A stretch of DNA of 64,000 bases from Calditrichota bacterium (GCA_013152715.1 JAADFU010000094.1:12610-76609); one strand, 5' to 3'. Positions 1 to 48,873 are shown, counted from the first letter of the stretch. Notes: a model not told the origin generated them from the letters alone. Numbers and translations: made by a program.

Positions 1-165
1 ATCAACAAAAAGCGGATGGAAACCATCAATGATTCAATTGATCGCATAAAAAACATTTTGAATAAAATGCGCGCCTTGCAGGCAAAAACTATCAAAACGC
101 GCGACGCTTTGAGTGGTTTAGAAATCTTTGAATTAAATGAAAATGAAAATCAAATGATTGTGTGA
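1..165 (+). CDS. 3' end of an upstream gene (partial, continues before the window); C-terminal 54 aa, charged/helical, no recognisable family
   Basis: Open frame 1 from position 1 to TGA at 163-165, read directly from the sequence; overlaps or abuts the pilT start. Confidence 0.3.
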   Translation: MNKKRMETINDSIDRIKNILNKMRALQAKTIKTRDALSGLEIFELNENENQMIV

Positions 166-166
166 C

Positions 167-1384
167 ATGGACAATGTAAATGACATGTTTGACAAAGTTT
201 TGGAGAATGTCCCCGAGTACGCCACGGATATTGAGCGGCAGGTAATGATTCGGAGAGGGGTCAAATCACTAAAGCCAGACGAGTTGAACGTCATCGTTTC
301 GCAAATTAATAATTACTTGATTTTTATGCGCGAGATTGAAGCCTCTGACATTGAAATCGGCGGGACAACAGCGCTGGGGCGTATCTGGTTTCGCGTTTTT
401 GGCGAAAAAAAACCGTATCCGGAATTGGGACTATTCACTCACGATCAGACGAATGTATTTTGTCAGGCAATTTTGACCGACAAACAGTGGGAGCGTCTTC
501 TGGAATGGCGAGCGACAGATTTTTCGCATTTGGTTGAAAAAGATGGCGTTATGTACCGCTGGCGCGCTACTGTCTATTTTGACATGGGACATTTAGCCTT
601 GAATATGCGGGCAATTGCAGATAAAATTTATCCGTTTTCAAATTACCAATTTGCGCCTAATGTTGCAAAACATCTGTCTCTGGGGCATGAAAAACAAGGT
701 TTGGTGCTCATCACCGGCATCACCGGCAGCGGCAAAAGCACAACCATGGACAGCATAATTGACGCGAATAACCGTAGTTTTCCCGGGCACATTGTGATTA
801 TCGGAGATCCGATTGAACAAATTCACCAGTCGAAAAAGAGCATCGTCCGCCATCGCGAAGTGGGCAGAGATGTGCTATCTTTCAAGGACGGCGCTATTCA
901 GGCATTGCGTCAGGACCCGGATATCATCGTTGTCGGCGAAATGCGCGATCCGGAAACGATCATTACCTGTCTGGAAATCACGGACACCGGTCACAAAGTG
1001 TTTTCCACTTTGCACACCAGTTCCGCCATGGAAACAATAGACCGTATCATCGCCGAATGTCCGCCAATAGAGCAGGAGCGTGTACGAAATCGTTTGGCAG
1101 ATGTGCTGCGCGTCATTGTCTCGCAAAAATTAGTGCCCAGTCTGGATGGCAAATTGGCGCTGGCAAAAGAAATAATGGTCGTGGACGGATCGGTAAAAGC
1201 CGCCATTCGCAACAACAACACCCATGAAATTTACCAGATGATCAGCGAACGAGGTCACCTGGGAATGACAACGCTGGAACAGGATTTGGTTCGTCTGTAC
1301 AAAAGCAGACTTATTTCTAAAGACAATGTTTATAATTTTGCCAATAATAAAAAACGAGTTCACGAATTAATGGTTTCGGAATAA
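167..1384 (+). CDS. pilT: PilT/PilU-family type IV pilus retraction ATPase with an extended, divergent N-terminal domain
   Basis: Walker A GITGSGKST, Asp box, Walker B IIVVGEMRD, His box GHKVFSTLHTSSA typical of PilT/GspE secretion ATPases. The ORF track starts at TTG 158; ATG 167 (MDNVND...) lies just after the upstream stop and is preferred. About 190 aa precede Walker A, versus about 130 in canonical PilT. Confidence 0.85.
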   Translation: MDNVNDMFDKVLENVPEYATDIERQVMIRRGVKSLKPDELNVIVSQINNYLIFMREIEASDIEIGGTTALGRIWFRVFGEKKPYPELGLFTHDQTNVFCQAILTDKQWERLLEWRATDFSHLVEKDGVMYRWRATVYFDMGHLALNMRAIADKIYPFSNYQFAPNVAKHLSLGHEKQGLVLITGITGSGKSTTMDSIIDANNRSFPGHIVIIGDPIEQIHQSKKSIVRHREVGRDVLSFKDGAIQALRQDPDIIVVGEMRDPETIITCLEITDTGHKVFSTLHTSSAMETIDRIIAECPPIEQERVRNRLADVLRVIVSQKLVPSLDGKLALAKEIMVVDGSVKAAIRNNNTHEIYQMISERGHLGMTTLEQDLVRLYKSRLISKDNVYNFANNKKRVHELMVSE

Positions 1385-1400
1385 AAATGTTGAGCGGACG

Positions 1401-3002
1401 ATGGACAAATTAGCTTTAGGCATATATTTCGACGGACTTTATGTTAATGCGGCGCTCGTGAAGCAGGAACACGGATTCCTCTCCATCGAATCGCTGGAAT
1501 CCTTCCGGCTTTACGACTCGCTTGAACAGTCAGAAGAAAGTCAAAACTCATCAGCTTCTTCGGGCGGAAGTGAACATGCAGCCGATTCGGACGACCCGTT
1601 TGGCTTTGATATCGACGGCATCGGGCAAAATAGCGACGTCACAGAAACGAGAGGCAATATCGACGTCATCGTGGAAATGTTGACAAAAATGGCGCCGGAC
1701 GGCTGTCCGATTGCTTTTAATTTGCACGACTCGAACGTCATCTACACGGTCATCAATGTCGATAAAAAAGTGACCAAATCACAGTTGAAAAAATTAATCG
1801 CCGAAGAATTGGCAAAGAGCGATGAGCAAGAATCTGTTTTCGGGCAAATCGGATTCGCGCCCATCTCAGATTTGAGCTATCTGGGCGTGGTGCACAAAGA
1901 TCCGCTCGTTTTTGCTAATCTGCTTTCAGAAGCGGTGCGCTTGATTCATCGACAATCTCAGCCGATCAAACTCATTGATACCATTGAATTTTCTTTGTCA
2001 GAGTTTATTTCCGGCGAATATCATTTTTCCGATCAGGATCGAACCGCAGTTGTCTTTTTCAGTCAGAATTTTACTAAAATATTTTTTATGAGAGGTTCGA
2101 TTGTTGATCACATTTTGCCGACAATCCACATCGGCATTCGTTCGAGCAAGATTTGCGAAACTGCTTTTTCCAAGTTGCTCTATGAACTCGATTTTAAAGG
2201 AATCGAATTGCCGCAGCGGATCGTATTGGTTGGCGAGGTGGATCCGATCGGAGCGGAAGATTTCTTTCAGCAGAAATTTCCTAATATCAAGATCGTTAAA
2301 TTTGAAGTCAATGAATCGCTGTTGGCGCCGCACATCCAAAGTCTTGCCGGCAAAACGTCTCCCTTCAGCGTGGCAATCGCGTTAGCGGCGAAGATTTTGC
2401 GACCTAAAAAATCAAGAAGATACAAACATAATTTTGTGCCTAAAAAAGTACGCGAACAACAGTCACAGTTTGTGATTGCCTGGCATGGATTCGCCATGGT
2501 AGGCTTAGTATTTTTGACGCTCGTTTTATTATTTTTAAAAAGCACAGCGATGAACGGCGATATTGCGAAATTGAAAAATTCGCTTGACGAAATAAATTTT
2601 GATCTTTCAAAACTGAGCAATGTTGAGCATGACGTGGATAGCCTGCGGCTCCAAATCAGCAATCTGGAAAAAGGGACTTCTCTGATCGACTCTTTATCTG
2701 CTGTCACGACTCGTTGGACGCCGTTAATAAAGACTTTTTCGGATGCGTATCAAAAAGTCGGGAAATTCTCAATTAAAAAAATGGAGAGCGTCAGTGATGA
2801 AAAAATGGTTGTGAGCTTAGATCTATCAAAATTAGAACAAGTTGCTTTGTTAGAAAGGTTCATTCCGGAAAGCAAAGTTTTGTCTGTGCTTCATCAGGAA
2901 ACAGAAGATCGAGGTGAAGTGCTGGAGATGACGATAGAATGCGATTTGAGCCATCAAAAGCTAAAAAAACCGAAAGCGGCAAAGTTGAATCAGGCGAATT
3001 AG
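1401..3002 (+). CDS. PilM-like actin-fold pilus assembly protein fused to a PilN-like segment (TM helix plus coiled coil)
   Basis: N-terminus LGIYFDGLYVNAALV resembles the PilM/FtsA ATPase-fold start. An internal hydrophobic helix (FVIAWHGFAMVGLVFLTLVLLFL, around aa 355-380) is followed by a coiled-coil-rich region like PilN. Position is immediately after pilT and before pilO/pilQ. Confidence 0.55.
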   Translation: MDKLALGIYFDGLYVNAALVKQEHGFLSIESLESFRLYDSLEQSEESQNSSASSGGSEHAADSDDPFGFDIDGIGQNSDVTETRGNIDVIVEMLTKMAPDGCPIAFNLHDSNVIYTVINVDKKVTKSQLKKLIAEELAKSDEQESVFGQIGFAPISDLSYLGVVHKDPLVFANLLSEAVRLIHRQSQPIKLIDTIEFSLSEFISGEYHFSDQDRTAVVFFSQNFTKIFFMRGSIVDHILPTIHIGIRSSKICETAFSKLLYELDFKGIELPQRIVLVGEVDPIGAEDFFQQKFPNIKIVKFEVNESLLAPHIQSLAGKTSPFSVAIALAAKILRPKKSRRYKHNFVPKKVREQQSQFVIAWHGFAMVGLVFLTLVLLFLKSTAMNGDIAKLKNSLDEINFDLSKLSNVEHDVDSLRLQISNLEKGTSLIDSLSAVTTRWTPLIKTFSDAYQKVGKFSIKKMESVSDEKMVVSLDLSKLEQVALLERFIPESKVLSVLHQETEDRGEVLEMTIECDLSHQKLKKPKAAKLNQAN

Positions 3003-3021
3003 TGAAAAATAAACTGAAGCT

Positions 3022-3996
3022 ATGAATAAAATTGTACGAAATACATTAATCCTGTCCTCGGTGTGGGTGCTCATGTTAATTATCGGTGTCATCTACATTT
3101 ACGGACATCAGAAAAAATTGCTCAATAAACTCAAAGCCGAAGAAAAACAAAAATCTGAGCGGCTGGCGGATTTGCGCTCGTTGCAGAATGATTTGACGGC
3201 GTTGGTAAATTATTATAAGCAATTGAAAGAAAATAGTTTACGATTTAAAGGTACTTTGGCGTCTTTTGTACTGCCTGGAGAAACTTTTGACTATATTCGC
3301 CGCGAACTGATTCGAACGAACTCTACCATAAAATTGGACATGGATTTTGAGAACGAAGAACCTTTTAAAAACATGATCAGACGAAATTATATTTTGAAAG
3401 GTACAGGCAAATTTACTGATATTTACAATTTCTTCTGGTTCTTAGAAAACGGACCGGTTTTTTATAATTTGGGCTCTTTAACGGTGGAAAAGACAGACCA
3501 AACTGCGGTCGCCGACGCGCTGCCTACTCCGGAAAAGGAAGCTTCATTCAATTTAAAGCTCGTTGGCTACGATCGCAAGGAAGGGCCAAACATAACGGAG
3601 ATCAATAATGAATATGGCGAGCCGGAGCGCATTGCAGACATATTCGAGGAAATCGCGCCTCGAAGTCGCTTCGCGGCAAATAAGCCCGCGCCTCGTTTCG
3701 CGGATAATAATTCGGCGCCGCCACGGATGAAAAGTCGCACTTTACAGCCGCAGGAAACAGCTAAAGCCAGAAATACAAGGGACTTGGCAAAGATGAGCAA
3801 CTCATGTGAAGTGCTGGCGATTACGCCATTTTCAGTGCTCATTAAAGACGCTAACGGAAAAATTATAAAGCTGCGCAAAGGTGATAAAATTTATGGCGGC
3901 ACATTGACAACATTGGACGCCAAAACAGGAAAGGCGATTTTTCAATACGACAATCAACCTGGAGCCAGGACATTTGTTTTGACAATGCAAAAATAG
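3022..3996 (+). CDS. PilO-like bitopic pilus alignment protein (N-terminal TM plus coiled coil) with a C-terminal beta-rich PilP-like domain
   Basis: Single N-terminal TM (LILSSVWVLMLIIGVIYIY) followed by coiled coil (KLKAEEKQKSERLADLRSLQNDL...). The C-terminal ~70 aa (ITPFSVLIKDANGKIIKLRKGDKIYGGTLTTLD...) resemble a small beta-sandwich. Gene order pilM/N-pilO-pilQ. Confidence 0.5.
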   Translation: MNKIVRNTLILSSVWVLMLIIGVIYIYGHQKKLLNKLKAEEKQKSERLADLRSLQNDLTALVNYYKQLKENSLRFKGTLASFVLPGETFDYIRRELIRTNSTIKLDMDFENEEPFKNMIRRNYILKGTGKFTDIYNFFWFLENGPVFYNLGSLTVEKTDQTAVADALPTPEKEASFNLKLVGYDRKEGPNITEINNEYGEPERIADIFEEIAPRSRFAANKPAPRFADNNSAPPRMKSRTLQPQETAKARNTRDLAKMSNSCEVLAITPFSVLIKDANGKIIKLRKGDKIYGGTLTTLDAKTGKAIFQYDNQPGARTFVLTMQK

Positions 3997-3998
3997 AG

Positions 3999-5642
3999 AT
4001 GACAACCATGAAAAGGATCATACTAACAACCGGGCTGGTAATGAGTTTATGCCTTGTGTCGGCGCTATTCGCCCAGAAAGAGCTGCCACGAGAATATACT
4101 CCGCCAGAAGAGTTGATTTCGCTGAACAGTGAAATTGACATCTCAACTGCGCTGGATTTGATCAGTGAGTACGCGATCCAGTTTGCCAAGAAACCAATCT
4201 ATGACCCCGATGGCCATTCCGGGCCTATCGGAGTTGATATTCGAAGTATTCCCTGGAAAAAGGCATTGGGCTTAATTCTCAGTCGACGGGGTTTGTGGTA
4301 TGCGGAAAAACCACGCTACATTCAGGTTATCAGCGCTGACGAGTACGAATCCATGCTCACTGGGGGTGGGGGAGAGGACATGAAGCTCGGCGCCGGCATG
4401 GATTTGAAACCCCACAGCCGGGAAGTAAAAATCGAGACCGTGTTTTTTGAAGGCGATAGAAAGGCGTTGAAAGAAATAGGTTTGGATTGGAGCACATTTT
4501 ATCAGGGAAAAGTACTTGTTGACGCCAGCCAATTGGGGACCCTGGATATTACTGACAACGTGTTTAATGTGGGCGCCAGAATTCCCAAAAAACTGATTGG
4601 CGTGGATTTGGAAGTGTTGCTGAAAGCTTTTGATTCAAAAAAAATTGGTAAAGTGTTAGCTCAGCCGCAAGTGGTCGTGACTGAGGGAAAAGAAGGAACT
4701 ATTCAGGTCGGACAGGATTTTTCGATCAAAGAACGAGATTTTGCCGGCAATATCATTGATCGTTTTTACAGTACAGGCACTATTCTCAAAGTAACGCCGT
4801 ACATCATTCAAAATACCGCGCCGGATGGCAAACCGCTTGAGCCGGTCATTTTTCTGAAAATCCATGTTGAGCGAAGCACGGCGCATCCGGATGTCGTCAG
4901 CACGATTATCAATAAATCCCAGGCGAATTCTTATTTGCAGCTTTATGACGGCGAGGAAACTTTGATTGCCGGGCTGTATTCCACTGAAAAAAATAAGGTT
5001 CGCAAGGGAGTGCCAATTTTAAAAGACATGCCGTGGTGGTTTTTGGGATTTCCGTACATTTTTGGATACAATCGCACCGAAGAAACTGAGAAAGAGTTGG
5101 TCATAATCATCAAAGCGACGCTGCTGAAAGACGTGCTCGTCCGTCAAAAAGTGACGAAAACGAATGCGATGAATCTAAGCCAAACGCTTGCGCAAAATTA
5201 TCGTAGCGACGCCTTTGTCAGAAATGATTTTTCTCAAATTCAAGCCAGTTCAGACTCGCCTGTACATAATTTTAGGGTGACAAGTCGACCGGAAGCCTCT
5301 TTGGTTTCCAATCCGACAGTGAAGCCGTTGGCAAACTCAATTCCCAAAGTGCAAAATCACAGTTCAATTACTCAATATTGCTTTGGCAAAATAATCAAAA
5401 TAAAGAACCAGTTGGCATTAATCTATTGGCAAAGAAAACCGGCGGAAATTAAAGTCGACGGCAAGATCGGATCAATTGTGAGAAAATCTAATTCTGCGCG
5501 AAAGGTCAATATTATTGCAGAAGCCAAAATTATCGGCACGCGACAGAATCGTTCTGTTGTCAAAATCAATAAAAGAAGATTTGATTCAACTATTCGTGCC
5601 GGAGATGTTTTTGTGATCAAAATAAACGCAACCGAGGATTGA
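3999..5642 (+). CDS. pilQ: Secretin (PilQ/GspD family) outer-membrane channel, short form with a ~180-aa C-terminal extension
   Basis: Signal peptide (MTTMKRIILTTGLVMSLCLVSALFAQ). Conserved secretin C-domain motif GVPILKDMPWWFLGFPYIFGYNRTEETEKELVIIIKATLL. An extra C-terminal region follows the secretin motif (…KVDGKIGSIVRKS…RAGDVFVIKINATED). Confidence 0.75.
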   Translation: MTTMKRIILTTGLVMSLCLVSALFAQKELPREYTPPEELISLNSEIDISTALDLISEYAIQFAKKPIYDPDGHSGPIGVDIRSIPWKKALGLILSRRGLWYAEKPRYIQVISADEYESMLTGGGGEDMKLGAGMDLKPHSREVKIETVFFEGDRKALKEIGLDWSTFYQGKVLVDASQLGTLDITDNVFNVGARIPKKLIGVDLEVLLKAFDSKKIGKVLAQPQVVVTEGKEGTIQVGQDFSIKERDFAGNIIDRFYSTGTILKVTPYIIQNTAPDGKPLEPVIFLKIHVERSTAHPDVVSTIINKSQANSYLQLYDGEETLIAGLYSTEKNKVRKGVPILKDMPWWFLGFPYIFGYNRTEETEKELVIIIKATLLKDVLVRQKVTKTNAMNLSQTLAQNYRSDAFVRNDFSQIQASSDSPVHNFRVTSRPEASLVSNPTVKPLANSIPKVQNHSSITQYCFGKIIKIKNQLALIYWQRKPAEIKVDGKIGSIVRKSNSARKVNIIAEAKIIGTRQNRSVVKINKRRFDSTIRAGDVFVIKINATED

Positions 5643-5645
5643 AAA

Positions 5646-8600
5646 ATGTGGCGCTATATTATTAATTTTGTAATCGTTGTCATCATCGGCATTCTGCTTT
5701 TTCTTTCTTGCGGACAGAGCGATGACATTGTGGGGTCTAAAAATGATTCCATTGAAGCCCTGGAGACGTCAGCGCCCGCGATTTTAGCGGACGGTTTGTC
5801 CACGGCAATCATCGTAGCGACGGTACTCGATTCCAGCGGCAAACATACGTCGGGTTTACCCGTTCATTTTGAAACGTCTGCTGGTGCGATCAATGAAATG
5901 GAATACACTGATGATGACGGAAACGCTTATGCCGTTCTGCAAAGCGTCGCCAGCAAAGCAGACCTGAAAGCGATAGTGACAGCGACTGTGCTGGATACGC
6001 TGCACCTTCTTCCCAAGGGCGCCGGATTTAATTTCGGCTTGAGGCTCTCTGTCAAGGGCATGAAATCACTGCCCGGACGAAAATTTGATTTGAAAAAATC
6101 GTCGGTAACGGGCGAGAATTCTGCCTCTATCCAGGTTAATTTTATTGGCATCGCTTTTGTCGGAGAATTGGAAGAAGCGTCCATTCCGGCAGATGGAATT
6201 TCAACGGCAAGATTGAAAGTGACGATTAAAGAGACCACGAGCAAAAAGGCGATAACCGACGCCGAAGTTTCCGTCGCGGCGACTTACGGCACAATTGTCA
6301 ATAAGATCAAAACGGACAACCAGGGACTTGCCCAGACGGATCTCACCGCGGCTACTGTTGAAGGCACCGATTCGATCTATCTGGAATACGGAAATGTTTT
6401 TCGCGACACGCTTTTCATTGATTACGAAAAACCCAACATTTCGATTTCTCCCAAAACTGCTTATTTAATTGCGGACGGGAGCAGCAAGACAACGTTCACC
6501 GTAGCTGTGAAATCAAAGAAAAATACGCCTATCGTCGATGCGGAAATTCATTTTTCCGCGACAGACGGAACCATTGCTCCGAGCGTAATTGCTACAAATA
6601 GCGAAGGAATCGCTCAGGCGACGCTCACCAGCGTTGCCAAAGTGGATACGAATGTATTGGTTATCGCCAGTTTGCATCAGTTTGCTGATACTGCTCGCGC
6701 GCGATTTATCAAGCCAATCCTGAGTTTGACGCCAGAAAGCGGGGAATTGCCGGCAGATGGCAGCAGCGAAATGGATTTCGCTGCCTCTCTTGTATTGCCG
6801 GATAATACGCCGGTTGTCGGAGCGGAAATAAGTTTTTCGACGTCAGCGGGAACAATTACCCCGACTTCAGGGAAAACCGATGCCACCGGTTCTGTCAGCG
6901 CAACACTGAAGAGCGATTTTAACGAAAATGAAAATGTGATTGTTAAAGCTGTTTTTCAAGAGTTGCAAAAAACAGCGACGGTTCGTTTCTCACTGCCAGT
7001 ACTCACGATTTCTCCTGCGGAAGCAAAATTGCTGGCTAACGGCAGCAGCAAACAGACATTCACCGCCGCTTTAATATCGCAGAACAACGTTCCTATCGCC
7101 AACGCGGAAATAGAATTCTCGACCACCAACGGGACTATTTCCAATTCTAGCGCGCTGACCAACGCCGAAGGAAAAGCGTCAACGGATTTGAGAAGCAGCA
7201 CTGTGCCCGACTCTAACGTGAAAGTGATCGCTCAATTCCACCATACGGCAGATACGGCGAACGTCGTTTTCATCCCTTCCTCGACAGAGAGCGGTTTAAA
7301 ATTAGAAGGTGAAAATGAATTGTTTCGCGATGGTATTTCTTCGACGACCATCACCGCCACTGTGCTCGATGAAAATGGAAACCCGGTATCCGATGCTACG
7401 GTTTTTTTCAGCGCTCAATACGGCACAATTCCACAGACAGCAGTCACCGGCTCGGATGGCAGTGCGGGCGTGACTTATATCGCCGATGTGGGCGAAAACA
7501 GCGTCTCAGACGAAATCACGGCTACCGTCGGCTCCGCAACCGTGAGCCACGTCATTTCGCTGCGCGGATTGACAATGACGCTTTCGGCTTCGCCGGATTC
7601 CATTCCTGCGGACGGAGTATCGATCTCGACCATTTCCGTCCATCTCAAACAGACGGAATCGCAATTAGCTGTTTCCGGAATCAATATCACTTTTACAAGC
7701 GACCGGGGATTCATTGGGACGACGGCTGCGACCAACGAACAGGGCGTGGCAAACATCGAGCTTCGATCCGCATCATCGCCAGGCACTGCCACAGTGACGG
7801 CGACGTACGGTCTTTTTGTCAAAACAGCAAATGTCCAATTTTATTTGAATTCGCCTCAGAGCATGATTTTGAGCGCTGACCCGAACTACATTTGGGTGAA
7901 AGAAACGGGCAATCTGGAGCAGACATTAATTACAGCGACGGTTTTAGGCGTACAAGGTCAGCCAATCGGCCATGAAGTTCCGATAAAATTTTACGTGCAA
8001 AATTCTCCGGATGAAAATCTCCCTGCCGATGAACAATGCGGCTTTGTGAACGAAGGCGGCGCCGTTGTGAGAGAGACGGACCCCATTTACAGCTCGGACG
8101 GATCGGCCAGTATCGGATTTCGCTCTGGCACAAAATCGGGAACCGTGGAAATTCGGGCGGAACTCGTCGAACAGCCGCAAACTTTATCGCGCCAGGCAGT
8201 GATCGTCATCCGTTCCGGCCCGCCCTACATCTGGATCGATCCGGCGGATCCCGACCACGTTTTGCCGAACATGACGCTTTATCTGGATTATTTCAATCAG
8301 GACGGCAAATATGCACTCCGCGAATACAAAGTCACTGCGCTGTTGGGCGATAAATACAATAACCCGGTCGAGCAAAACACGACAGTCTATTTCACTTCCA
8401 CGGGCGGAGTAATCACCACAGACACCAAAACATCCGCCGACGGATTTGCTCATGTGTCGCTTTTTTCGGGGAATCCGTTTCCCACAACTTGTCCCGCTGA
8501 TCCGCGGTTGAATCCGCATCAAATCCCAAATCCGAACGAGGAAGGGATGAATTTACCGATTATTTTGCCGGATTTTGAGATGGGCGAAGTGACAAATAGC

Positions 8601-9059
8601 TGCGGCGATACGGGCGAAAATGACGGCATTGCTGTAATTTACGCCTACACCTGGGGCAGAGACCAAAACGGAAATGATGCGACGGTTTTCACGACCACCA
8701 AGGCAGTATTTGGCGGTGCAATTACACATTTTGAAGTTTACGTGGATCCTCCGGTAGATTCATTGAATCCCGGAGAAGTCGCTAATATTCATATTCGCGT
8801 CTGGGACGAGCATGGCAATCCACCATCGGCTGGTTCGTCAATGTCTGCCTCCACTTCAGCGGGAAAATTATCCGTAGAAAAATTTATGCCGGACAAAGAT
8901 CGCTATGGATTTGGCAGTACTTATTTCACTACTTCACTGTTAAATAATCTGGACCCGATCGAAGACAAACCGCAAATGGCGGAAGTCACCATTAGTCTGG
9001 ATGCGCCGAATCCAAACGGGAAAATTAGCGGAACGGTTTATGTCTATTTAAAACTTTAG
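5646..9059 (+). CDS. Large surface lipoprotein composed of about 9-10 tandem bacterial Ig-like (Big_1/invasin-intimin type) domains plus a distinct ~280-aa C-terminal domain
   Basis: Lipoprotein signal with lipobox (LLFLSCGQ). Recurring ~90-aa units with signatures such as ATVTATYG, ISFSTSAGTITPTSGKTDATGSVSATLKSD, IEFSTTNGTISNSSALTNAEGKASTDLRS and VFFSAQYGTIPQTAVTGSDGSAGVTY, typical of Big_1 repeats. Confidence 0.7.
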   Translation: MWRYIINFVIVVIIGILLFLSCGQSDDIVGSKNDSIEALETSAPAILADGLSTAIIVATVLDSSGKHTSGLPVHFETSAGAINEMEYTDDDGNAYAVLQSVASKADLKAIVTATVLDTLHLLPKGAGFNFGLRLSVKGMKSLPGRKFDLKKSSVTGENSASIQVNFIGIAFVGELEEASIPADGISTARLKVTIKETTSKKAITDAEVSVAATYGTIVNKIKTDNQGLAQTDLTAATVEGTDSIYLEYGNVFRDTLFIDYEKPNISISPKTAYLIADGSSKTTFTVAVKSKKNTPIVDAEIHFSATDGTIAPSVIATNSEGIAQATLTSVAKVDTNVLVIASLHQFADTARARFIKPILSLTPESGELPADGSSEMDFAASLVLPDNTPVVGAEISFSTSAGTITPTSGKTDATGSVSATLKSDFNENENVIVKAVFQELQKTATVRFSLPVLTISPAEAKLLANGSSKQTFTAALISQNNVPIANAEIEFSTTNGTISNSSALTNAEGKASTDLRSSTVPDSNVKVIAQFHHTADTANVVFIPSSTESGLKLEGENELFRDGISSTTITATVLDENGNPVSDATVFFSAQYGTIPQTAVTGSDGSAGVTYIADVGENSVSDEITATVGSATVSHVISLRGLTMTLSASPDSIPADGVSISTISVHLKQTESQLAVSGINITFTSDRGFIGTTAATNEQGVANIELRSASSPGTATVTATYGLFVKTANVQFYLNSPQSMILSADPNYIWVKETGNLEQTLITATVLGVQGQPIGHEVPIKFYVQNSPDENLPADEQCGFVNEGGAVVRETDPIYSSDGSASIGFRSGTKSGTVEIRAELVEQPQTLSRQAVIVIRSGPPYIWIDPADPDHVLPNMTLYLDYFNQDGKYALREYKVTALLGDKYNNPVEQNTTVYFTSTGGVITTDTKTSADGFAHVSLFSGNPFPTTCPADPRLNPHQIPNPNEEGMNLPIILPDFEMGEVTNSCGDTGENDGIAVIYAYTWGRDQNGNDATVFTTTKAVFGGAITHFEVYVDPPVDSLNPGEVANIHIRVWDEHGNPPSAGSSMSASTSAGKLSVEKFMPDKDRYGFGSTYFTTSLLNNLDPIEDKPQMAEVTISLDAPNPNGKISGTVYVYLKL

Positions 9060-9171
9060 AGAAAAAAATGCGGTACACTTTCATTCTTCAATCATGTGTA
9101 ATACGGGAACAACATGATTCTTCCATCCATGCCGAGGTGTACCGCATTTAATAATTTCATCTGAGGGATCA

Positions 9172-9663
9172 GTGATGATGCAGAATTTTCTATTGATCGG
9201 CGCTTTTGTGATTTTAGGAATATTAATTTTATCAATTAACAGCACAATTTTTGTCACCAACAAAGCGATTACAGAGAACGAAGTACATATTACGGGAATC
9301 GGTCTGGGGCAAGCGCTGATAGAAGAAATCACTTCGCGGTCTTTTGATGAAAATACGACCGGATCAAAAAGGGTCGCCTCTCCTTCTCAATTGACGGGTG
9401 TGGACAATCTGAGCAAAGAAACTGGAGAGCCGCCTTTTGACGACGTAGATGATTACAACAATTTCAGCAAAAAGGTCGATACGCCGCGAATCGAGGGGTA
9501 CGTGATTAATGTGAAAGTTGGCTACGCGAATCCGTTGACTCAGAGAAATTTTATTAGTACGAAAACATATCTCAAAAGAATTGAAGTGACGGTAAAAAAT
9601 CCGAAATACATGCACAATCCGGATTCGCTGATTTTAGCGACGGTAGTTTCGTATTTCAAATAA
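9172..9663 (+). CDS. Pilin-like protein A (N-terminal hydrophobic anchor, no canonical G/FxxxE prepilin motif); paralog of 11426-11929
   Basis: N-terminal helix MMMQNFLLIGAFVILGILILSIN. Shares blocks with the paralog: IEE...FDEN, PPFDDVDDYNNFS vs PYFDDIDDFNGFS, TKTYLKRIEVTVKNP vs SRTYFKRMVVEIFSP. Confidence 0.4.
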   Translation: MMMQNFLLIGAFVILGILILSINSTIFVTNKAITENEVHITGIGLGQALIEEITSRSFDENTTGSKRVASPSQLTGVDNLSKETGEPPFDDVDDYNNFSKKVDTPRIEGYVINVKVGYANPLTQRNFISTKTYLKRIEVTVKNPKYMHNPDSLILATVVSYFK

Positions 9664-9675
9664 AACAGGAGAACG

Positions 9676-10257: not shown

Positions 10258-10278
10258 AACCATAAATCAGCAGAGATT

Positions 10279-11322: not shown

Positions 11323-11425
11323 TTTTTATCACATGATTGTCACTGAGATTATTAACTCACAGTTAGTGATTTTGCGCGGCAACGATCTTATTTGTAATTA
11401 GTTATTTAAAATTGGGTTAAGAAAA

Positions 11426-11929
11426 ATGGGAAAAGGCGATCTGATTTTGGTCATCGGCGGACTTTTGCTGCTGTCAATGTTCACGCTTACAATAAACAGC
11501 TCGATTCGTGAGAATCAAAGCACGCTTTATTCAAGCGAAAGCGTCTTGAATGGATTAGTTTTAGCGCAAAAGTACATTGAAGAAGCGGAAGCGCTGCGCT
11601 TCGATGAAAACAAATCCGCGACGATTCCCAGTTCGTTCACCAAGCCGATTCGTCTGGGCCCTGACGGAAATGAGCATTATCCTTATTTTGACGACATCGA
11701 TGATTTTAACGGTTTTTCTGTTACAGATACATTGTCGGGAAACGTACCTTACACAATTTATATCAGCGTTTTTTATGCAACATTAACGAAGCCGGATAAA
11801 GTTTCTACCAGCCGAACCTATTTCAAAAGGATGGTAGTGGAGATATTTTCACCATTTATGAAAGATGCAGGCGATAAAACGATCACTTTGAAAAAACTTT
11901 TTGCTTATCATTATTTTTATAGTCAATAA
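11426..11929 (+). CDS. Pilin-like protein A' (second copy of the cassette)
   Basis: N-terminal helix DLILVIGGLLLLSMFTLTIN. Conserved blocks shared with 9172-9663 (see that entry). Confidence 0.4.
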   Translation: MGKGDLILVIGGLLLLSMFTLTINSSIRENQSTLYSSESVLNGLVLAQKYIEEAEALRFDENKSATIPSSFTKPIRLGPDGNEHYPYFDDIDDFNGFSVTDTLSGNVPYTIYISVFYATLTKPDKVSTSRTYFKRMVVEIFSPFMKDAGDKTITLKKLFAYHYFYSQ

Positions 11930-11949
11930 AAAATTGAGACGGATTTGCC

Positions 11950-12534: not shown

Positions 12535-12559
12535 CTAGAAAACTACAACAGGTGAAATC

Positions 12560-13825: not shown

Positions 13826-14176
13826 TGAGTCTTTCATTTTTTTTGTTACAAACAGCGCACATCCTCCAAGGCAGATTTGGGATTGTTTAACGTGGAAAAT
13901 ATTTTCATTTTAGTTGACGACCTGCCGAATTTGTTTCTGCTAAATTTTTACTAAAACTCTTTTCTTCCAATCTGAACAAATTTCACATTTCAAAATGAAA
14001 TATTGCCTAATCATAATTCTCTTTTTGAACAACCAGTCATTTGCTCAAAAGACATTTAAATTTTTAGCAATTTTTCTACTGCTTTATTTCTTTTATTTAC
14101 AATATGTTAAACAAATTAGTTTTTTTATTTGCGTCAGCCTAAAAACCTTGAAATAATAATTCTATTTTCTAGCTAA

Positions 14177-14192
14177 TGGTACGCTTTTTGTT
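14177..14192 (+). promoter_or_regulatory. Putative sigma-54 (-24/-12) promoter, near-consensus: TGGTACGCTTTTTGTT vs TGGCACG-N4-TTGCW
   Basis: GG at 14178-14179 and the conserved G at 14190 with correct 10-nt spacing, about 58 bp upstream of the DUF4347-like gene. A sigma-54 enhancer-binding protein gene lies immediately downstream. One mismatch in each element. Confidence 0.3.
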
Positions 14193-14249
14193 AGATAGAA
14201 TATTGAATTCCAACGAAACATAACTCTCAAATATGAAAGGGGTTGGGAA

Positions 14250-14876
14250 ATGCGTGAGGAAAAAACATTGTCGGGATGTGTGGTCATTTTTGGGATGCTG
14301 TTATTAATTTTTAGCGGGACGCATCAAATATGGGCACAAGCGAACCATTCAATGAAGCCGTTGAACGTCATTTTCGTTTCCAGCAAAATCCAGAATGCAC
14401 AAGCGATTGCCGACGCGGCAGACAAAGAGGCAGTGGCTGTCGTTTATGATTTTGAAAATACAACGCTGAGGCAAATTAATTTGACTCTGGAAGAATTAGT
14501 GCAATGGAAAGGGAAAAAAATTGACCATTTAATGTTCTTCTGCCACGGCGCGCCGGGGACGGTCATTTTAAGTGCTAAGGAAATTGTGGACGTGAAATCC
14601 GTGAAGAGCGAATCCGATGAATGGAAATTTTTCAGCAAAATGTTCAACAAAAATGCTACCATCGATTTTTATGGCAGTGAAATCGGCTGGGGCGAAGAAG
14701 GCAAACAATTGGTCACATTTCTCTCTCAGGTGACAGGCGCCACTGTTCGCGCCAGCGTCAATTCGTCCGGCAACATTCATGACGCCGATTGGAATTTGGA
14801 AATCAAAACGGGGAAAAATCAAATTCCCTGCCCAATTAATTTTTCGCAGTTAGCAAAAACGCCCCTGTATTTTTAA
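14250..14876 (+). CDS. Secreted standalone DUF4347-like domain protein
   Basis: Signal peptide (…LLIFSGTHQIWAQA|N). Mature part matches the DUF4347 pattern as I recall it: (FFCHGAPGTVILSAK ~ HxxSHGxxG; IDFYGSEIG ~ LLYGCNVA; GATVRASVNSSGN ~ GADVAAS; DADWNLEIKTG ~ GGDWxLE). That domain normally sits at the N-terminus of giant adhesin-like proteins; here it is 208 aa in total. Confidence 0.55.
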   Translation: MREEKTLSGCVVIFGMLLLIFSGTHQIWAQANHSMKPLNVIFVSSKIQNAQAIADAADKEAVAVVYDFENTTLRQINLTLEELVQWKGKKIDHLMFFCHGAPGTVILSAKEIVDVKSVKSESDEWKFFSKMFNKNATIDFYGSEIGWGEEGKQLVTFLSQVTGATVRASVNSSGNIHDADWNLEIKTGKNQIPCPINFSQLAKTPLYF

Positions 14877-14999
14877 ATAGATGGCGCTGTTTAGTCAGCG
14901 CCTGTCCACTGCCGCTGGTTGTCGCCCCTCTGCCAGCGGCATGGGCTTTTTCTGATGATCAACAAAATTTGGCCAATCACAGCGAATGAGAACACAGCT

Positions 15000-16394
15000 A
15001 TGGAAAATGAAAACAATGATCCGAGAACAGTTCTGGTGGTCGACGATGATATTGTTGATCTGAAAATTATGGAGCGTTTTTTCTTAAACAATAATTATCC
15101 GCATCTGCTCGCTAAAAATGCTGCTGACGGTTTATTGCTTTACCACAAACATTATCCGAAAATCATTTTCATCGATTTGCTGCTTCCGGACATGAATGGT
15201 ATTACATTGATGGAAGAAATTATCCGTGAAGATCCCGAAGTCTCCATCGTCATCGCTACGGGCCACGCTTCAGTGGAAACTGCGGTCGAGGCGATCAAAA
15301 AAGGCGCCTGCGACTATATCACCAAGCCTATTGATATGTATCAGTTGTCGCTTTTGACAGAACGTCTGGTAAAATCGCAGCAAGTTTTGCTGGAAAAAAA
15401 TCTTTTGCAGGCGAGATTGGATGAATTGTTTGGGTTTCATAATTTTATCGGCCAAAGCCAGCAGATCAAAAATGTCATTCGTCAAATCTTGCAAGTCGCC
15501 CGCACAAGTGCGACAGCGCTCATCACCGGCGAATCCGGAACCGGAAAAGAACTTTGCGCCAATGCCATTCACCAATCCAGTCCAAGAAAAAATAAACCAT
15601 TCATCAAACTAAATTGTGCCGCTCTGCCTGAGAATATCATTGAAAGCGAACTTTTCGGCCATGAAAAAGGCGCGTTTACCTCAGCGATTCAAAAACGCAT
15701 TGGGAAATTTGAATTGGCGGACGGCGGCACCATTTTCCTGGACGAGATCGGAGACCTTTCAATTTCTATTCAAGCAAAACTGTTGCGCGTGCTCGAGAAC
15801 CAGGAATTTGAGCGAATTGGCGGCAATCAGACAATTAAAGTGGACGTGCGCCTCGTCGCCGCCACAAACAGAGATTTAAGACAAGCGGTGGAAAAGGGGC
15901 TTTTCCGCGAGGACTTATTTTATCGGTTGAATGTGGTTAATATTCATATTCCACCGCTTCGCGAGCGACGTGAAGATATTCCGGTGCTTCTGACTCATTT
16001 TCTCCAACATTTCGCGGAGCAGATGAATAAACCAATTAAGTCAATTTCGGCGAAGGCACAAGCGTTGCTCAACTCATATTCTTGGCCAGGCAATGTGAGA
16101 GAGTTAGTCAATACGATTGAGCGGGCAGTTGTTTTTTGCGAGTCAAGCACAGTAACGGAGCGGGACCTGCCAGATCAGATCGCCGGAGCAAGCAACGACC
16201 CAGCAAACTCATGGAATATGCCGTTGTTGCCTTTGGCTCAGATGGAAAAAAAGTTGATCGAGCGAGTGTTAATCGAAACCAATTGGAATTTACGTCGCGC
16301 TGCGAAAATTTTAAACATCCATCGTGGAACTCTTTACAGCAAAATTGAAAAACATGGGATTAAGAAAAACAAATTATTGATGGCGTTCAATTAA
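15000..16394 (+). CDS. Sigma-54-dependent Fis-family response regulator (NtrC/PilR-like: REC + AAA+ sigma-54 activator + HTH)
   Basis: Receiver domain (VLVVDDD…D…T…K). Sigma-54 interaction domain with Walker A GESGTGKE, the GAFTSA loop and LDEIGD. C-terminal Fis-type HTH (LRRAAKILNIHRGTLYSKI). The ORF track starts at 14919; the start at ATG 15000 (MENENNDPRTV) or 14955 is uncertain. Confidence 0.85.
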   Translation: MENENNDPRTVLVVDDDIVDLKIMERFFLNNNYPHLLAKNAADGLLLYHKHYPKIIFIDLLLPDMNGITLMEEIIREDPEVSIVIATGHASVETAVEAIKKGACDYITKPIDMYQLSLLTERLVKSQQVLLEKNLLQARLDELFGFHNFIGQSQQIKNVIRQILQVARTSATALITGESGTGKELCANAIHQSSPRKNKPFIKLNCAALPENIIESELFGHEKGAFTSAIQKRIGKFELADGGTIFLDEIGDLSISIQAKLLRVLENQEFERIGGNQTIKVDVRLVAATNRDLRQAVEKGLFREDLFYRLNVVNIHIPPLRERREDIPVLLTHFLQHFAEQMNKPIKSISAKAQALLNSYSWPGNVRELVNTIERAVVFCESSTVTERDLPDQIAGASNDPANSWNMPLLPLAQMEKKLIERVLIETNWNLRRAAKILNIHRGTLYSKIEKHGIKKNKLLMAFN

Positions 16395-16463
16395 GCTGTC
16401 GGAATATTTGTCATAATTTTCAGTTAGAGATGTTGGAAAACGTTTAGCAAAAAAAAGAGAGGG

Positions 16464-16892
16464 GTGGTCACCATGTCTCCTAAAAAAACCACTCAAAAAT
16501 TCGACAGCGGAATCACCAAAAAGATGTTAATTATTGATGATTCTGAAGTCAATCGTTATTTGCTGGAAACGGTGCTCAGCCATTTGGGTTATGATACCAT
16601 TGCCGCTGTTAACGGGGAAGCCGGATTGGCGGAATTTAAAAAAAGCCAGCCATTCATTACTTTTTTGGACATTGTTATGCCGGGAAAATCCGGGCTGGAA
16701 ATCCTCAAACAGATAAATGAAATATCGCCTTCTTCCATCGTGGTCATGGTTAGTTCTTTCTCAAGCAAAGAAAATCTATTCGAAGCGAAAAAGGCTGGCG
16801 CTAATTGGTTCCTTGTCAAACCGATCACGGCTTCAAAAATAGCGGAATTAGTCGCTTATTTTGAGAAAAAAAGTTTGCAGCAAAGCTATTAA
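16464..16892 (+). CDS. Single-domain CheY-like response regulator receiver
   Basis: MLIIDDSEVNR…D…LDIVMPGKSGLEIL…K: Asp pocket, phospho-acceptor Asp in FLDIVMP, conserved Lys. Confidence 0.8.
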   Translation: MVTMSPKKTTQKFDSGITKKMLIIDDSEVNRYLLETVLSHLGYDTIAAVNGEAGLAEFKKSQPFITFLDIVMPGKSGLEILKQINEISPSSIVVMVSSFSSKENLFEAKKAGANWFLVKPITASKIAELVAYFEKKSLQQSY

Positions 16893-16909
16893 CAGAAACG
16901 GGAGAAAAC

Positions 16910-17248
16910 ATGATTTGCAAATCTTGCGGCGCTGACAACAAGGATTGGGCGTCTTATTGCACGCATTGCGGCGTTCCTCTGGGAAATGTTTGTCGCTGCT
17001 CTTTTATTAATGAGGCCGGAGACCTGTACTGCGGCGGTTGTGGCAGACCACTGATGGCGAACGGGAATGACAGGTTGAAGCGCGACATAGCTCTTGAGGG
17101 TTTGGAACTTGTCGACAATCAATTCAATGAATCACAGATAAAAAAACTCATCAGAGAGAGCCTGTTGATGAAAGTGGATGAAGACGATTCCATCAATCAA
17201 AGCGATATCGATTTGATTTTTTCCATGGACAACGATCCGCCAGAGTGA
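16910..17248 (+). CDS. Small double zinc-ribbon protein
   Basis: CKSCGADN…CTHCG and CRC…CGGCG Cys pairs at the N-terminus, acidic C-terminal tail; located between the receiver gene and pilB. Confidence 0.4.
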   Translation: MICKSCGADNKDWASYCTHCGVPLGNVCRCSFINEAGDLYCGGCGRPLMANGNDRLKRDIALEGLELVDNQFNESQIKKLIRESLLMKVDEDDSINQSDIDLIFSMDNDPPE

Positions 17249-17280
17249 GAAATTTTAGTGACTAAAACGACGCATCGAGG

Positions 17281-18978
17281 TTGAAAATGGCATTTCAGGA
17301 AGATCAAGTTTTTATTCAGGAACTGATAAAAAAGGGGCTGATTACAAAATCTCAAATCATTCAATCGCAAAATTTGCTCCGTACTCAACTCAGTCGGGAA
17401 GGGATTACGAAAACATTGTTGTCTCATTTTAAGCTCGACGAAACAAAACTGGCGCAATCCATTGCAGAAATATTCAACGTGCCATTTATGGAGCAGGTAA
17501 ACGGCCTTTCGCGAATGGAAGTTGACGAACTCCAGACAGTGAATATTCCCGCTGATTTTCGTTTCATTCCTGTGCTGGTTGATATTAATGAAATCACCAT
17601 TGCCATCAAGGACCCGCCTTATCAGAAATTGGTTGAGTTTGTCAAAAAAGCGACCGACAAGCACATCATTACTCTTGTGCTCAAAAATTCCGATTTTGAA
17701 TATCTCAATGATGAAAAAGTCGCGGAGAAAAAGTCGGATAAGCCGCTAAAAATTGATTTCTCCAAACTCGATGTCGAGAAGCAGGGGCTTCGATGGGCAC
17801 GATCAGCAGAGCAGACCGGATCGCTACCTTCGGCGAAGAATGTACTTGATCGCTTACTGGAGACCGCTCGCGAAACCAACGCCAGCGATATCCATCTGGA
17901 AATTACATCTCAGAACACGTTGGTCGTCAGATTTCGCTTAAACGGCGTTCTTCAGCGAGTGGTCACGCTGCCTCAGAGTTACGCCTCATCCTTGCCGAAA
18001 GTAATCAAGCAGATAGCGAGCATTGATAATTTTGAGAAAAACAATATAGCAGAAGGAATTTTTTCGGAGCCATTGAGCGGCAATAAAATTCAGTGCCGCG
18101 TAAATATTATTCCCACCGCGACCAGCGAAAAAATTACTCTCCGCATGGTCAACGACCATCTGGATATTATTCGTCTGGAACGCTTGGGGTTATCGCTGCA
18201 TGATCTGCAGCGGATTCGTCGTCTTTTGTCTTACCACAATACTGTTATTTTATTCTCCGGCCCAGCCGGATGTGGAAAGACGACGACTTTGTACTCTGTC
18301 TTGAACGAGCTCAATCATTTCACGAAAAATATTACAACCATCGAAACGCCGGTGGAAGCTCATCTGGAAGGAGTTAATCAAATTTCTGTAACGACAAATT
18401 CAGATCTTGATTTTGCTAAGGTGATGAAAGCTTTGTTTCATCATGACGTGGATTCTCTGGCTCTGGGTGAGGTTCGCAGCAAGCAAGAGGCTGAGTTGCT
18501 TTTGGAAGCAGGCCTTTCCGGAATGACTGCTTTTGCCACGATTCAAGCGGCAGACGCAATAAAAACAATCTATCGTTTGAAAAATTTTGGCGTAGAGATC
18601 GAACAATTTGCGCTCGCTCTCCGCGGCATCGTTTCTCAACGATTTGTGCGCAAGGTTTGTCCTTATTGTCAGGCAGAATATCGTCCGGATGCGGAAATTC
18701 TGCAAAACGCCGGACTAAAAAGTCTGCCGGAAGATTTTAAATTTAAGCGGGGATTGGGCTGCAAGAATTGCCTGGGGACAGGCTATCTGGGGCGCATTCC
18801 CGTTTTTGAAGTTCTCATTTTCAATGAAACTCTGAGTTCGTTGGTTTTTCAAAACAAACCATATCGCGAACTTTTTTTAGCGGCGAAACATGAAGGCTTC
18901 ACTACCCTGCGCTATGACGGACTTCGCAAAGCGCTGGCAGGCATCACCACGCTCAACGAAGTCCTTCGAGTCACTTGA
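17281..18978 (+). CDS. pilB: Type IV pilus assembly ATPase PilB / GspE family
   Basis: N-terminal T2SSE_N/MshEN-like helical domain. Walker A GPAGCGKTT, Asp and His boxes. Tetracysteine zinc motif CPYC…CKNC typical of GspE/PilB. Confidence 0.85.
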   Translation: MKMAFQEDQVFIQELIKKGLITKSQIIQSQNLLRTQLSREGITKTLLSHFKLDETKLAQSIAEIFNVPFMEQVNGLSRMEVDELQTVNIPADFRFIPVLVDINEITIAIKDPPYQKLVEFVKKATDKHIITLVLKNSDFEYLNDEKVAEKKSDKPLKIDFSKLDVEKQGLRWARSAEQTGSLPSAKNVLDRLLETARETNASDIHLEITSQNTLVVRFRLNGVLQRVVTLPQSYASSLPKVIKQIASIDNFEKNNIAEGIFSEPLSGNKIQCRVNIIPTATSEKITLRMVNDHLDIIRLERLGLSLHDLQRIRRLLSYHNTVILFSGPAGCGKTTTLYSVLNELNHFTKNITTIETPVEAHLEGVNQISVTTNSDLDFAKVMKALFHHDVDSLALGEVRSKQEAELLLEAGLSGMTAFATIQAADAIKTIYRLKNFGVEIEQFALALRGIVSQRFVRKVCPYCQAEYRPDAEILQNAGLKSLPEDFKFKRGLGCKNCLGTGYLGRIPVFEVLIFNETLSSLVFQNKPYRELFLAAKHEGFTTLRYDGLRKALAGITTLNEVLRVT

Positions 18979-48479: not shown

Positions 48480-48811
48480 TGTTTACCTGCTTTCTACTGT
48501 ATGTTTTTATTGACAATTTTTGATTCTATTTTTCGAATTTTGTTTTATTTTTAAAAAATTGTTTTCTCTGATTTACGCCGCCCCAAAATGCGTCCGTTTG
48601 TTGCTACTGTCGTTTTCACAGTACTGTTGCGATCAGGACTTCTTGGTGAAATAGCAGTGAGCTTTATTTTTTTCAGGAGCAATGGGTTCGAACCGATGAG
48701 GTACGAAATATGATTAGCCTTGATTTTGAAAATTAAAAAGGAAATTTCCATACCGAAGAAATAGCTTGTTTAGATAAAAGCGGGTTTCGTATTTTTTTCA
48801 ATAGACACCAC

Positions 48812-48852: not shown

Positions 48853-48873
48853 AAGAAGTTCTTTCTGAGAAAA

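Follow-up and report, generated by a model that had tools for sequence, protein, structure and literature searches.

A predicted lineage-wide type IVa-like pilus system of KSB1 and related bacteria with divergent, fused components and non-canonical pilins

A class III signal peptide, together with the dedicated peptidase that removes it, is held to be a defining trait of type IV pili, of the pseudopili of type II secretion systems (T2SS), of competence pili and of archaella. The type IV filament locus at positions 158-18978 of a 64,000-nt stretch of DNA from a Calditrichota bacterium (the whole stretch is referred to here as the window) raises the question of whether pilins can be extracted and polymerised without removal of a leader and without the pair formed by Glu5 and the N-terminal amine. 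The locus itself can be placed with considerable confidence: a retractable type IVa-like pilus system, about 29 kb long and encoded in a single locus, very probably accounts for positions 1-18978, which make up its downstream two-thirds. The system is conserved in the candidate phylum KSB1 and related lineages. Judged by its sequences, it is a real, conserved and lineage-wide pilus system, with divergent and fused components and non-canonical pilins.

The initial annotation of the window had described a divergent type IV filament locus, and the component identities obtained from hidden Markov model (HMM) and structural evidence agree with this. All of the open reading frames (ORFs) that it had placed on the plus strand were recovered by ORF calling; the region 158-18978 contains 16 co-directional ORFs separated by short gaps, all intact and collinear, and every one of them has conserved homologues. 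The product of the second ORF, a 533-amino-acid (aa) fusion of PilM and PilN, is 100% identical to GXO74_07260, a hypothetical protein of a Calditrichaeota bacterium metagenome-assembled genome (MAG). The locus tags of the window extend from this one to GXO74_07295. A protein 82% identical to it is encoded by KSB1 bacterium 4484_87, and 22 relatives were found among 5.8 billion proteins. A scan with the family alignment of this fusion protein, in which one genome was kept per species, yielded 26 loci, or about 30 in all when further loci are included. The 26 loci belong to KSB1 MAGs, several of which are mislabelled 'Cytophagia', and, at 23-27% identity, to MAGs of Balneolales, 'Bacteroidetes' and 'Chitinophagales'.

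The ORFs of all loci were matched to the window proteins and to the proteins encoded upstream in the locus of the 82%-identical relative (L004). The approximately 30 loci, from KSB1, Balneolales, LCP-89 and Zixibacteria, have an architecture in common. As far as the contigs reach, the order in KSB1 is pilin(s), PilC, PilB (about 594 aa), response regulator(s), PilS-like kinase, PilT, PilM-PilN fusion (PilMN), PilO, secretin, a protein with Big_1 repeats, and one or more sets of three small pilin-like genes (triads). In the Balneolales-type loci the order is rearranged to pilin, pilin, PilC, PilB, triad, PilT, PilMN, PilO and secretin; LCP-89 has a further permutation of the same parts, and the shorter Zixibacteria locus comprises the first genes only (activator, pilin and PilC). 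The genes between pilQ and pilB had been taken for insertions. This does not hold: in about 20 KSB1 species both the Big_1 protein and one triad or more form a conserved part of the system. The reading of these genes as passengers is rejected, since a Big_1 gene and a triad regularly belong to the core neighbourhood. The possibility of a standard, widely conserved operon, which the initial annotation had set against its own description, is realised in part: the operon is widely conserved at the level of the lineage, and its small ORFs resemble minor (pseudo)pilins by fold, not by sequence or N-terminal signal.

The window begins within the locus, because bases 1-153 encode the C-terminus of a kinase, namely the last 51 residues of a PilS-like protein that are 82% identical to the 323-aa kinase encoded before pilT in L004. 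The Pfam matches of the latter gene are 6TM_PilS and HisKA. In L004 the 8.8 kb upstream of pilT encode, in this order, a response regulator, three pilins, PilC, a PilB of 593 aa, three more response regulators and the kinase. A PilC platform protein (T2SSF, 441-468 aa) is encoded upstream of pilT in every relative whose contig extends there. One to three major pilins, PilC, a core PilB, response regulators and the PilS-like kinase are therefore predicted upstream of the window. A 132-aa pilin starting with MGQQQ (P0034) is encoded on a contig of 156,476 bp, and the PilMN and 167-aa proteins of the window lie on a contig of equal size, which strongly suggests that this major pilin belongs to the window's own contig. 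The initial annotation had seen no pilC, pilD or canonical pilin. This is correct for the window, the rest of which contains none of them, with housekeeping genes only at 19-64 kb, but not for the locus, which has a platform and a major pilin upstream in syntenic relatives. Since the window starts inside the locus, the missing pilC, major pilin and core PilB are very probably an artefact of the window's edge. The genes of the locus that lie in the window are as follows.

1-153, plus strand: 3' end of the gene for a PilS-like sensor kinase (6TM_PilS/HisKA), truncated where the window begins
167-1384, plus strand: PilT-family retraction ATPase; the ORF opens at TTG 158, and the likely start is ATG 167
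1401-3002, plus strand: PilM-PilN fusion, 533 aa, with a cytoplasmic actin-like part, one membrane-spanning helix and a periplasmic part, assigned from an AlphaFold2 model and Foldseek
3022-3996, plus strand: PilO-like bitopic protein, 324 aa, containing a Pro-rich linker and, at the C-terminus, a domain of about 70 aa
3999-5642, plus strand: PilQ-like secretin, 547 aa, with a short N-terminal region (PF00263)
5646-9059, plus strand: Big_1/Invasin_D3 repeat protein, 1137 aa, with a lipobox-like N-terminus; putative surface adhesin
9172-9663, plus strand: triad 1, member a, GspI/XcpV-like minor pilin, leaderless, 163 aa
9676-10257, plus strand: triad 1, member b, putative GspJ/PilW-like minor pilin, leaderless, 193 aa
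10285-11322, plus strand: triad 1, member c, putative large GspK/PilX-like minor pilin, 347 aa, starting MGK; the ORF opens at TTG 10279
11426-11929, plus strand: triad 2, member a, GspI/XcpV-like minor pilin, leaderless (MGKGD...), 167 aa
11950-12534, plus strand: triad 2, member b, putative GspJ/PilW-like minor pilin, leaderless (MNAIRE...), 194 aa
12560-13825, plus strand: triad 2, member c, DUF4900 protein of 421 aa, putatively GspK/PilX-like by its position
14250-14876, plus strand: DUF4347 protein with an N-terminal signal-like segment (PF14252, E 7e-28)
15000-16394, plus strand: sigma-54-dependent response-regulator activator of the NtrC/AtoC class; the ORF opens at TTG 14919
16464-16892, plus strand: single-domain response regulator (PF00072, E 5e-23)
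16910-17248, plus strand: double zinc-ribbon protein (PF12773, PF13240)
17281-18978, plus strand: PilB2, a divergent paralogue of the PilB/GspE family (PF00437, TIGR02538)

The PilM-PilN fusion, the 324-aa protein and five of the six small pilin-like ORFs have no match in Pfam or NCBIfam, permissive thresholds included. Scans of the window with Rfam models and for tRNA genes gave no matches.

The distinctive feature of the system lies in its pilins. In 22 major-pilin genes of KSB1 and Balneolales-type loci the start MGQQQLLL is invariant, the rest of the protein falling to about 35-40% identity, and exactly this start is present in 116 of the best 120 database matches, the family numbering 4,783 proteins. 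Between the start ATG and the upstream in-frame stop, which is mostly 1-8 codons away, no ATG, GTG or TTG occurs in 21 of the 22 genes. Because the stop lies directly before the ATG with no alternative start, a class III leader could not be accommodated. Ribosome-binding sites of the AAGGAG/GGAG type are located just 5' of the ATG in most of the 22 genes. The class III signal peptide, made up of a short basic leader, Gly at -1, a hydrophobic residue at +1 and Glu at +5, is one of the traits by which the type IV filament superfamily is defined (Denise et al. 2019); it is not found in the major pilin, where Gln occupies position 5. The genes for a processing peptidase are likewise not apparent: Peptidase_A24 is absent from the window and from the precomputed Pfam listings of the loci, no ORF with GxGDxK, the motif typical of A24 peptidases, was found in 632 kb of loci, and no A24 gene occurs within 10 kb of any of the approximately 30 loci.

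Every pilin of the system appears, from its predicted start, to be made without a class III leader, and its subunits would either need no peptidase or have just one or two residues removed. In the former case the pilin would be translated in an already 'mature' form, beginning with Met1 or, after removal of the methionine, with Gly2, with Gln5 in place of Glu5 and with no prepilin peptidase at all. We regard this as possible, at somewhat less than an even chance. In the latter case the subunits would be ordinary prepilins of a divergent type IVa pilus, carrying an ultrashort Met-Gly leader that an unlinked A24 peptidase cleaves after Gly2; this, too, is a serious possibility, one that falls short of being probable. 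Gly at -1 is the sole residue strictly needed by prepilin peptidases, and the genes of these enzymes are often unlinked to pilus genes. Two observations count against the pilin being translated mature. Gly2 is invariant in both the major pilin and the large triad members (family c), as expected for cleavage after Gly by an unlinked peptidase. The alignment of the major pilin with Geobacter and Thermus pilins puts its G17 on the canonical G14, which makes residues 1-3 a tiny leader and does not bring Gln5 onto Glu5. This profile alignment, to proteins in the PDB, sets the canonical F1 near residue 4 and so leans towards an ultrashort leader, with E-values that are not significant. Gly at position 4 is also common in the small triad members (family a), and all loci of the mannose-sensitive haemagglutinin (MSH) pilus are without a prepilin peptidase gene (Denise et al. 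2019). On the other hand, the major pilin has no basic residue ahead of its Gly, a conserved Gly at a fixed place is missing from families a and b (the latter comprising the medium-sized triad members), the would-be +5 position is hydrophobic instead of Glu, and an A24 gene is missing from the neighbourhood of the loci.

The six small genes of the window form two paralogous triads, with identities between paralogues of 30% (a), 24% (b) and 18% (c). They had been described as pilin-like and lacking prepilin motifs, and the structural model of the small member and the N-terminal alignments are in accordance with this. The model of the 167-aa member has a confident fold with a long hydrophobic N-terminal helix; its best structural matches are the T2SS pseudopilins XcpV, GspI and EpsI, and the fold is that of GspI. 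Its paralogue in triad 1 has the N-terminus MMMQNFLLIGA, with no start codon further upstream. In family a the start is M-x-x-G/S, and position 5 is occupied by D, E, H or N. Those of family b start with M-N-x-x-x-D/E (alignment A6), and the second-best match of the family b profile in the PDB is the Thermus type IV-like pilin TTHA1219, at an E-value of 0.31 that is not significant, in an alignment that pairs the D/E at position 6 with the pilin Glu5. Family c (alignment A7) has an invariant G2 and starts with M-G-K/R; none of its aligned sequences shows an acidic residue close to the N-terminus, and the family gave no profile match in the PDB. Nor is Glu5 known from GspK or PilX. The triad 2 member of this family is a DUF4900 protein (PF16241, E 1.2e-8) in which MGR is followed by a hydrophobic stretch; it is conserved at 50-59% identity across KSB1 and is also present in LCP-89. 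In all three families 3-6 polar residues precede the hydrophobic helix, and there is neither a conserved basic leader nor a Gly-Phe cleavage site followed by Glu. Size, order and N-terminal features suggest that families b and c are GspJ/PilW-like and GspK/PilX-like, respectively. Most KSB1 species have one triad, usually of the DUF4900 type, and the window's clade has both. Several minor-pilin sets have been described within single organisms, and by analogy the two triads may serve as alternative priming or tip complexes.

The same genes could be read as a T2SS-like system, which would form no extracellular pilus but a short pseudopilus in the periplasm that drives cargo, such as the neighbouring Big_1 lipoprotein, out through the secretin. 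The resemblance of the small triad member to XcpV, GspI and EpsI agrees with such a system, as does the location of all genes in a single locus, but the remaining components make it improbable. The first of these is PilT. The window protein scores 308.9 bits with TIGR01420 (cut-off 319.1) over residues 50-399 and also matches PF00437, and it has kept intact Walker A, Asp box, Walker B and His box motifs. Homologues of 400-429 aa occupy the same position in all loci, and PilT is inside the operon in every locus. To our knowledge, T2SS lack PilT. The protein had been credited with about 60 extra N-terminal residues; an extension is present, although it is smaller, about 46-49 residues, position 2 of the TIGR01420 model aligning at residue 50 of the TTG ORF. 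The extension (window 167-310, residues 1-46) is kept in all homologues of the system and has no Pfam match at E 10.

The PilB-type ATPases also point to a pilus, as TIGR02538, the model of type IV-A PilB, is the best model for both. The core PilB of L004 scores 444.7 bits and PilB2 of the window 324.6 bits, both under the equivalog cut-off of 675, and the two proteins are 26% identical. PilB2 keeps Walker A and the Walker B glutamate. In three genomes the Asp of its Asp box is replaced by Thr, Met or Asn, GEIRD is changed to GE(V/I)R(S/T) (GEVRS in the window), and both His of the His box are replaced (GH by GM or GL, and LH by IQ). These substitutions are conserved between the window (17281-18978), L033 (15874-17565) and L035 (15877-17568). 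A weak match to MshEN was found in Pfam at E 10. By its sequence PilB2 is a divergent paralogue with degenerate catalytic motifs, distinct from the core assembly motor. It may be a pseudo-ATPase or a regulatory paralogue, presumably with a regulatory or scaffolding role. The initial annotation had reported the gene order of the type IVa pilus (T4aP) with pilB at the far end. The gene at the far end encodes this 26%-identical degenerate paralogue and not the core motor.

The fusion of PilM and PilN, proposed in the initial annotation, is supported for the PilM part by structure prediction. An AlphaFold2 model of the 533-aa protein was built on 20 homologues, with a pLDDT of 75.3 and best segments above 90. 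Residues 1-340 have an actin-like ATPase fold, followed by a long helix (348-435) that includes a hydrophobic, presumably membrane-spanning stretch at about 360-385, and the C-terminal residues 440-515 form a helix-strand-strand, helix-strand-strand arrangement. In a Foldseek search of the PDB the PilM structures 5eou, 5eq6, 3jc8_Ma and 2ych rank first (E 1e-14 to 3e-12); these top matches are from P. aeruginosa, M. xanthus and T. thermophilus, with best TM-scores of 0.66-0.67, normalised to the target. They are followed by FtsA and then by the cytoplasmic domains of EpsL/GspL. Profile searches with the sequence found no match in Pfam, NCBIfam or the PDB. The PilN part is proposed from the topology of the model, a transmembrane helix, a coiled coil and two alpha-beta-beta units. 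PilM-PilN fusions are also reported from clostridial pili and are therefore unusual but not unprecedented. An actin-like domain, a transmembrane helix and a periplasmic domain in one polypeptide are also the architecture of GspL, which, like the Foldseek matches to EpsL/GspL, favours a T2SS-like system; HMM searches found no match to GspC, GspL or GspM among the window proteins.

The 324-aa protein was assigned through its relatives. Among 1.84 billion representative proteins a full HMMER scan found 146 relatives, 39 of which were scanned with Pfam. PilO (PF04350) was matched by six of these 39 remote homologues (best E 4.7e-6), T2SSM_b by one and PilN by one; the window protein itself does not match PF04350. 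Since remote homologues match Pfam PilO, the N-terminal two-thirds of the protein can be regarded as PilO-like, an assignment supported by transitivity only. A profile comparison (hhalign) of the PilO-like and PilMN families aligned the coiled coil alone, with a probability of 1.7%, and thus detected no PilN/PilO homology. Among the remote relatives (P0195-P0316), AMIN was found in four of the 39, LysM in two and SH3_4 in one; these are peptidoglycan- or septum-associated modules that are usual on PilQ or other envelope proteins. The C-terminal part of about 70 aa is conserved (alignment A9), and its sequence pattern, judged by eye, is like that of PilP and the GspC HR domain; it has no Pfam match at E 10, and the only related match in the PDB is GspC, at E 0.88. 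PilP of T4aP is a lipoprotein whose beta-sandwich domain binds the N0 domain of the secretin. The PilO-like gene with an extra C-terminal domain noted in the initial annotation is thus upheld by the transitive Pfam matches and the conserved tail, and it is plausible that the protein consists of PilO and a PilP-like domain.

The secretin domain (PF00263) covers residues 212-376 of the 547-aa secretin, with an E-value of 1.5e-25. Its best NCBIfam match is PilQ (TIGR02515) with 81 bits, far below the cut-off of 284, and MshL is matched weakly. By the PF00263 boundary the C-terminal extension has 171 aa (residues 377-547, window 5130-5642), close to the 180 aa given before. Neither the N-terminal region nor the extension has a Pfam match at E 10, and no AMIN domain was detected outside the secretin domain. 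The extension is present in the KSB1 homologues (529-608 aa) and absent from those of Balneolales (395-422 aa).

The adjacent gene encodes the 1137-aa protein, in which Pfam identifies eight Big_1 (E 3.4e-76) and seven Invasin_D3 domains, with a partial intimin match in NCBIfam and a lipobox-like N-terminus (LFLSC). The Big_1 gene adjoins the secretin gene or a triad in every KSB1 locus that is long enough, and in LCP-89 a gene for an Invasin_D3 protein is found in the equivalent place. The protein is a putative surface adhesin of the system; the conservation of a large lipoprotein gene beside the secretin gene or triad would also suit a secreted cargo. Two KSB1 species (L001 14953-21596, and L016 from 5782 onward) carry the Big_1 gene and the triad as one block in the opposite orientation to the secretin gene, which is followed by c, b, a and then Big_1, all on the minus strand; the adhesin-plus-triad unit therefore moves as a module.

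Two further similarities to T2SS concern the platform protein, whose best NCBIfam match is GspF, below the equivalog cut-off, and the rise in size through the triad, with a largest member that lacks an acidic residue, as GspK is known to do. Against these stand, besides the intact PilT, the ATPases and secretin that are closer to PilB and PilQ, the lack of leaders in the would-be pseudopilins, the absence of sequence matches to GspL, GspM, GspC, GspI, GspJ and GspK, and a regulation of the T4aP type by a PilS-like kinase and sigma-54 activators. A precedent for a T4aP-like system assigned to secretion is the T4aP-derived 'T2SS' of Bacteroidetes (PMC6668835, PMC5553014), a so-called T2SS with a very divergent pilin (Denise et al. 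2019). Like the present system, it is a type IV filament of the Fibrobacteres-Chlorobi-Bacteroidetes group that clusters with T4aP, its major pilin is divergent, and its PilMNOP-like proteins are recognisable only by remote homology. The Cytophaga hutchinsonii cluster CHU_3191-3202 encodes its own Peptidase_A24 (CHU_3197), and the paper on it does not mention PilT (PMC5553014); in the loci described here, compared with that system by descriptions only, PilT is present and A24 is not. Identity with the Cytophaga 'T2SS' is rejected on these grounds, and the Bacteroidetes system is the nearest described relative in spirit.

It is scarcely credible that the odd ORFs are non-functional and the locus no more than a relic in decay or a product of misassembly. 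Several ORFs without Pfam or NCBIfam matches and an in-window PilB that has lost catalytic residues would fit such a view, but the ORFs are intact, collinear and conserved from 82% down to about 20% identity in dozens of assemblies, made independently and covering various environments and phyla, the models of PilMN and the small triad member fold with high confidence, and the substitutions in PilB2 are themselves conserved.

The pilus reading is to be weighed against several observations of a different kind. In Pfam the major pilin has only sub-threshold matches, to ComP_DUS, and its profile matches in the PDB, all of which are type IV pilins, have E-values of 0.13-0.39 that are not significant. 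The identities of families b and c come from position and weak matches, as does the PilP-like identity of the tail of the 324-aa protein from weak matches. The upstream genes of the window's own genome are predicted from the synteny of relatives, all organisms that carry the system are uncultured, and the pilus is predicted from their genes.

The regulatory genes of the window form part of an accessory module, which comprises the DUF4347 protein, the sigma-54 activator, the response regulator, the zinc-ribbon protein and PilB2. This module is present in the window's close relatives only and not in more distant KSB1 loci; the DUF4347 protein, for example, has homologues in three close relatives and none in more distant loci. 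The activator contains Response_reg, Sigma54_activat and HTH_8 domains, its best NCBIfam matches are AtoC and NtrC, and its homologues in the relatives have 462-464 aa. Of the 'three regulators' initially described, the activator and the response regulator are confirmed as such, but the zinc-ribbon protein is not demonstrably a regulator. A search for sigma-54 promoters of the -24/-12 type upstream of the pilin genes and in the intergenic gaps of the window revealed no conserved site, with counts at chance level. As no conserved -24/-12 site was found, it is from the gene neighbourhood that a PilR-type sigma-54 control of the pilin may be proposed.

Taken as a pilus, the system shares with the T4aP of Pseudomonas, Myxococcus and Thermus the PilB- and PilT-type ATPases, PilC, the PilM fold, a PilO-like protein and a PilQ-type secretin, as well as small, medium and large minor pilins (cf. 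FimU/PilVWX), a PilS-like kinase with six transmembrane segments and sigma-54 activators. It differs from them in the absence of a class III leader and Glu5 from the pilins, in the fusion of PilM with PilN, in the extra domain of PilO and in its organisation as a single locus with neither a separate pilP nor pilD. The extensions of PilT and of the KSB1 secretin and the lack of a detectable AMIN domain in the latter are further differences. No PilY1 was detected, and the Big_1 lipoprotein is encoded in that neighbourhood; all scores of the ATPases and the platform lie under the NCBIfam equivalog cut-offs. The MSH pilus is similar in having a single locus without a peptidase gene, and the weak matches of the secretin to MshL and of PilB2 to MshEN recall it. 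The component sets differ: MSH pilins have canonical leaders, and we know of no MSH locus with PilT. A literature search on pili of KSB1, Zhuqueibacterota, Calditrichaeota and Zixibacteria, on leaderless pilins and on DUF4900 and DUF4347 found no description of the system or of bacterial pilins without a leader, and the KSB1 genome papers in it do not mention pili; its coverage was incomplete, and a prior description is possible.

By analogy with T4aP and T2SS, PilB acting on PilC would extract the pilins from the inner membrane. The GspI/J/K-like triad of small, medium and large subunits would prime and cap the fibre, with the two triads perhaps giving alternative tips. PilMN and PilO, the latter possibly with its PilP-like domain, would connect the motor to the secretin, PilT would retract the fibre, and the Big_1 protein may be an adhesin or a cargo.

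Some neighbouring genes are of interest in their own right. Directly downstream of the pilus locus, and in the same place in close relatives, a 559-aa ORF on the minus strand (20601-22280) joins formiminotransferase (FTCD_N, FTCD) and cyclodeaminase (FTCD_C) domains. A 1.6-kb stretch of low G+C content (0.39) at 48480-50100 has no Rfam or tRNA match and no ORF longer than 112 aa, except for a gene of an HU/IHF-like DNA-binding protein on the minus strand (48874-49167). In LCP-89 (L037, 5387-7503) and Zixibacteria (L038, 5861-7983), dprA and obg are located on the opposite strand just upstream of the activator, pilin and pilC genes, a neighbourhood not seen in the KSB1 loci. The position of dprA beside the pilus locus hints at a role in DNA uptake in these two lineages.

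In HMM-based annotation the pilins, PilMN and PilO of the system go wholly undetected, and surveys therefore probably under-count pili in widespread bacteria of sediments and hot springs. The fusions of PilM with PilN and of PilO with an additional domain, as well as the degenerate PilB paralogue, provide material for the study of the alignment complex and of motor regulation. If its pilins are indeed translated in their mature form, the type IV filaments would have, in this system, their first member that is independent of a peptidase, a large bacterial lineage represented in KSB1, Zixibacteria, LCP-89 and Balneolales by more than 4,700 pilin sequences, and it would constitute a natural experiment on the reasons for leader cleavage, N-methylation and Glu5.

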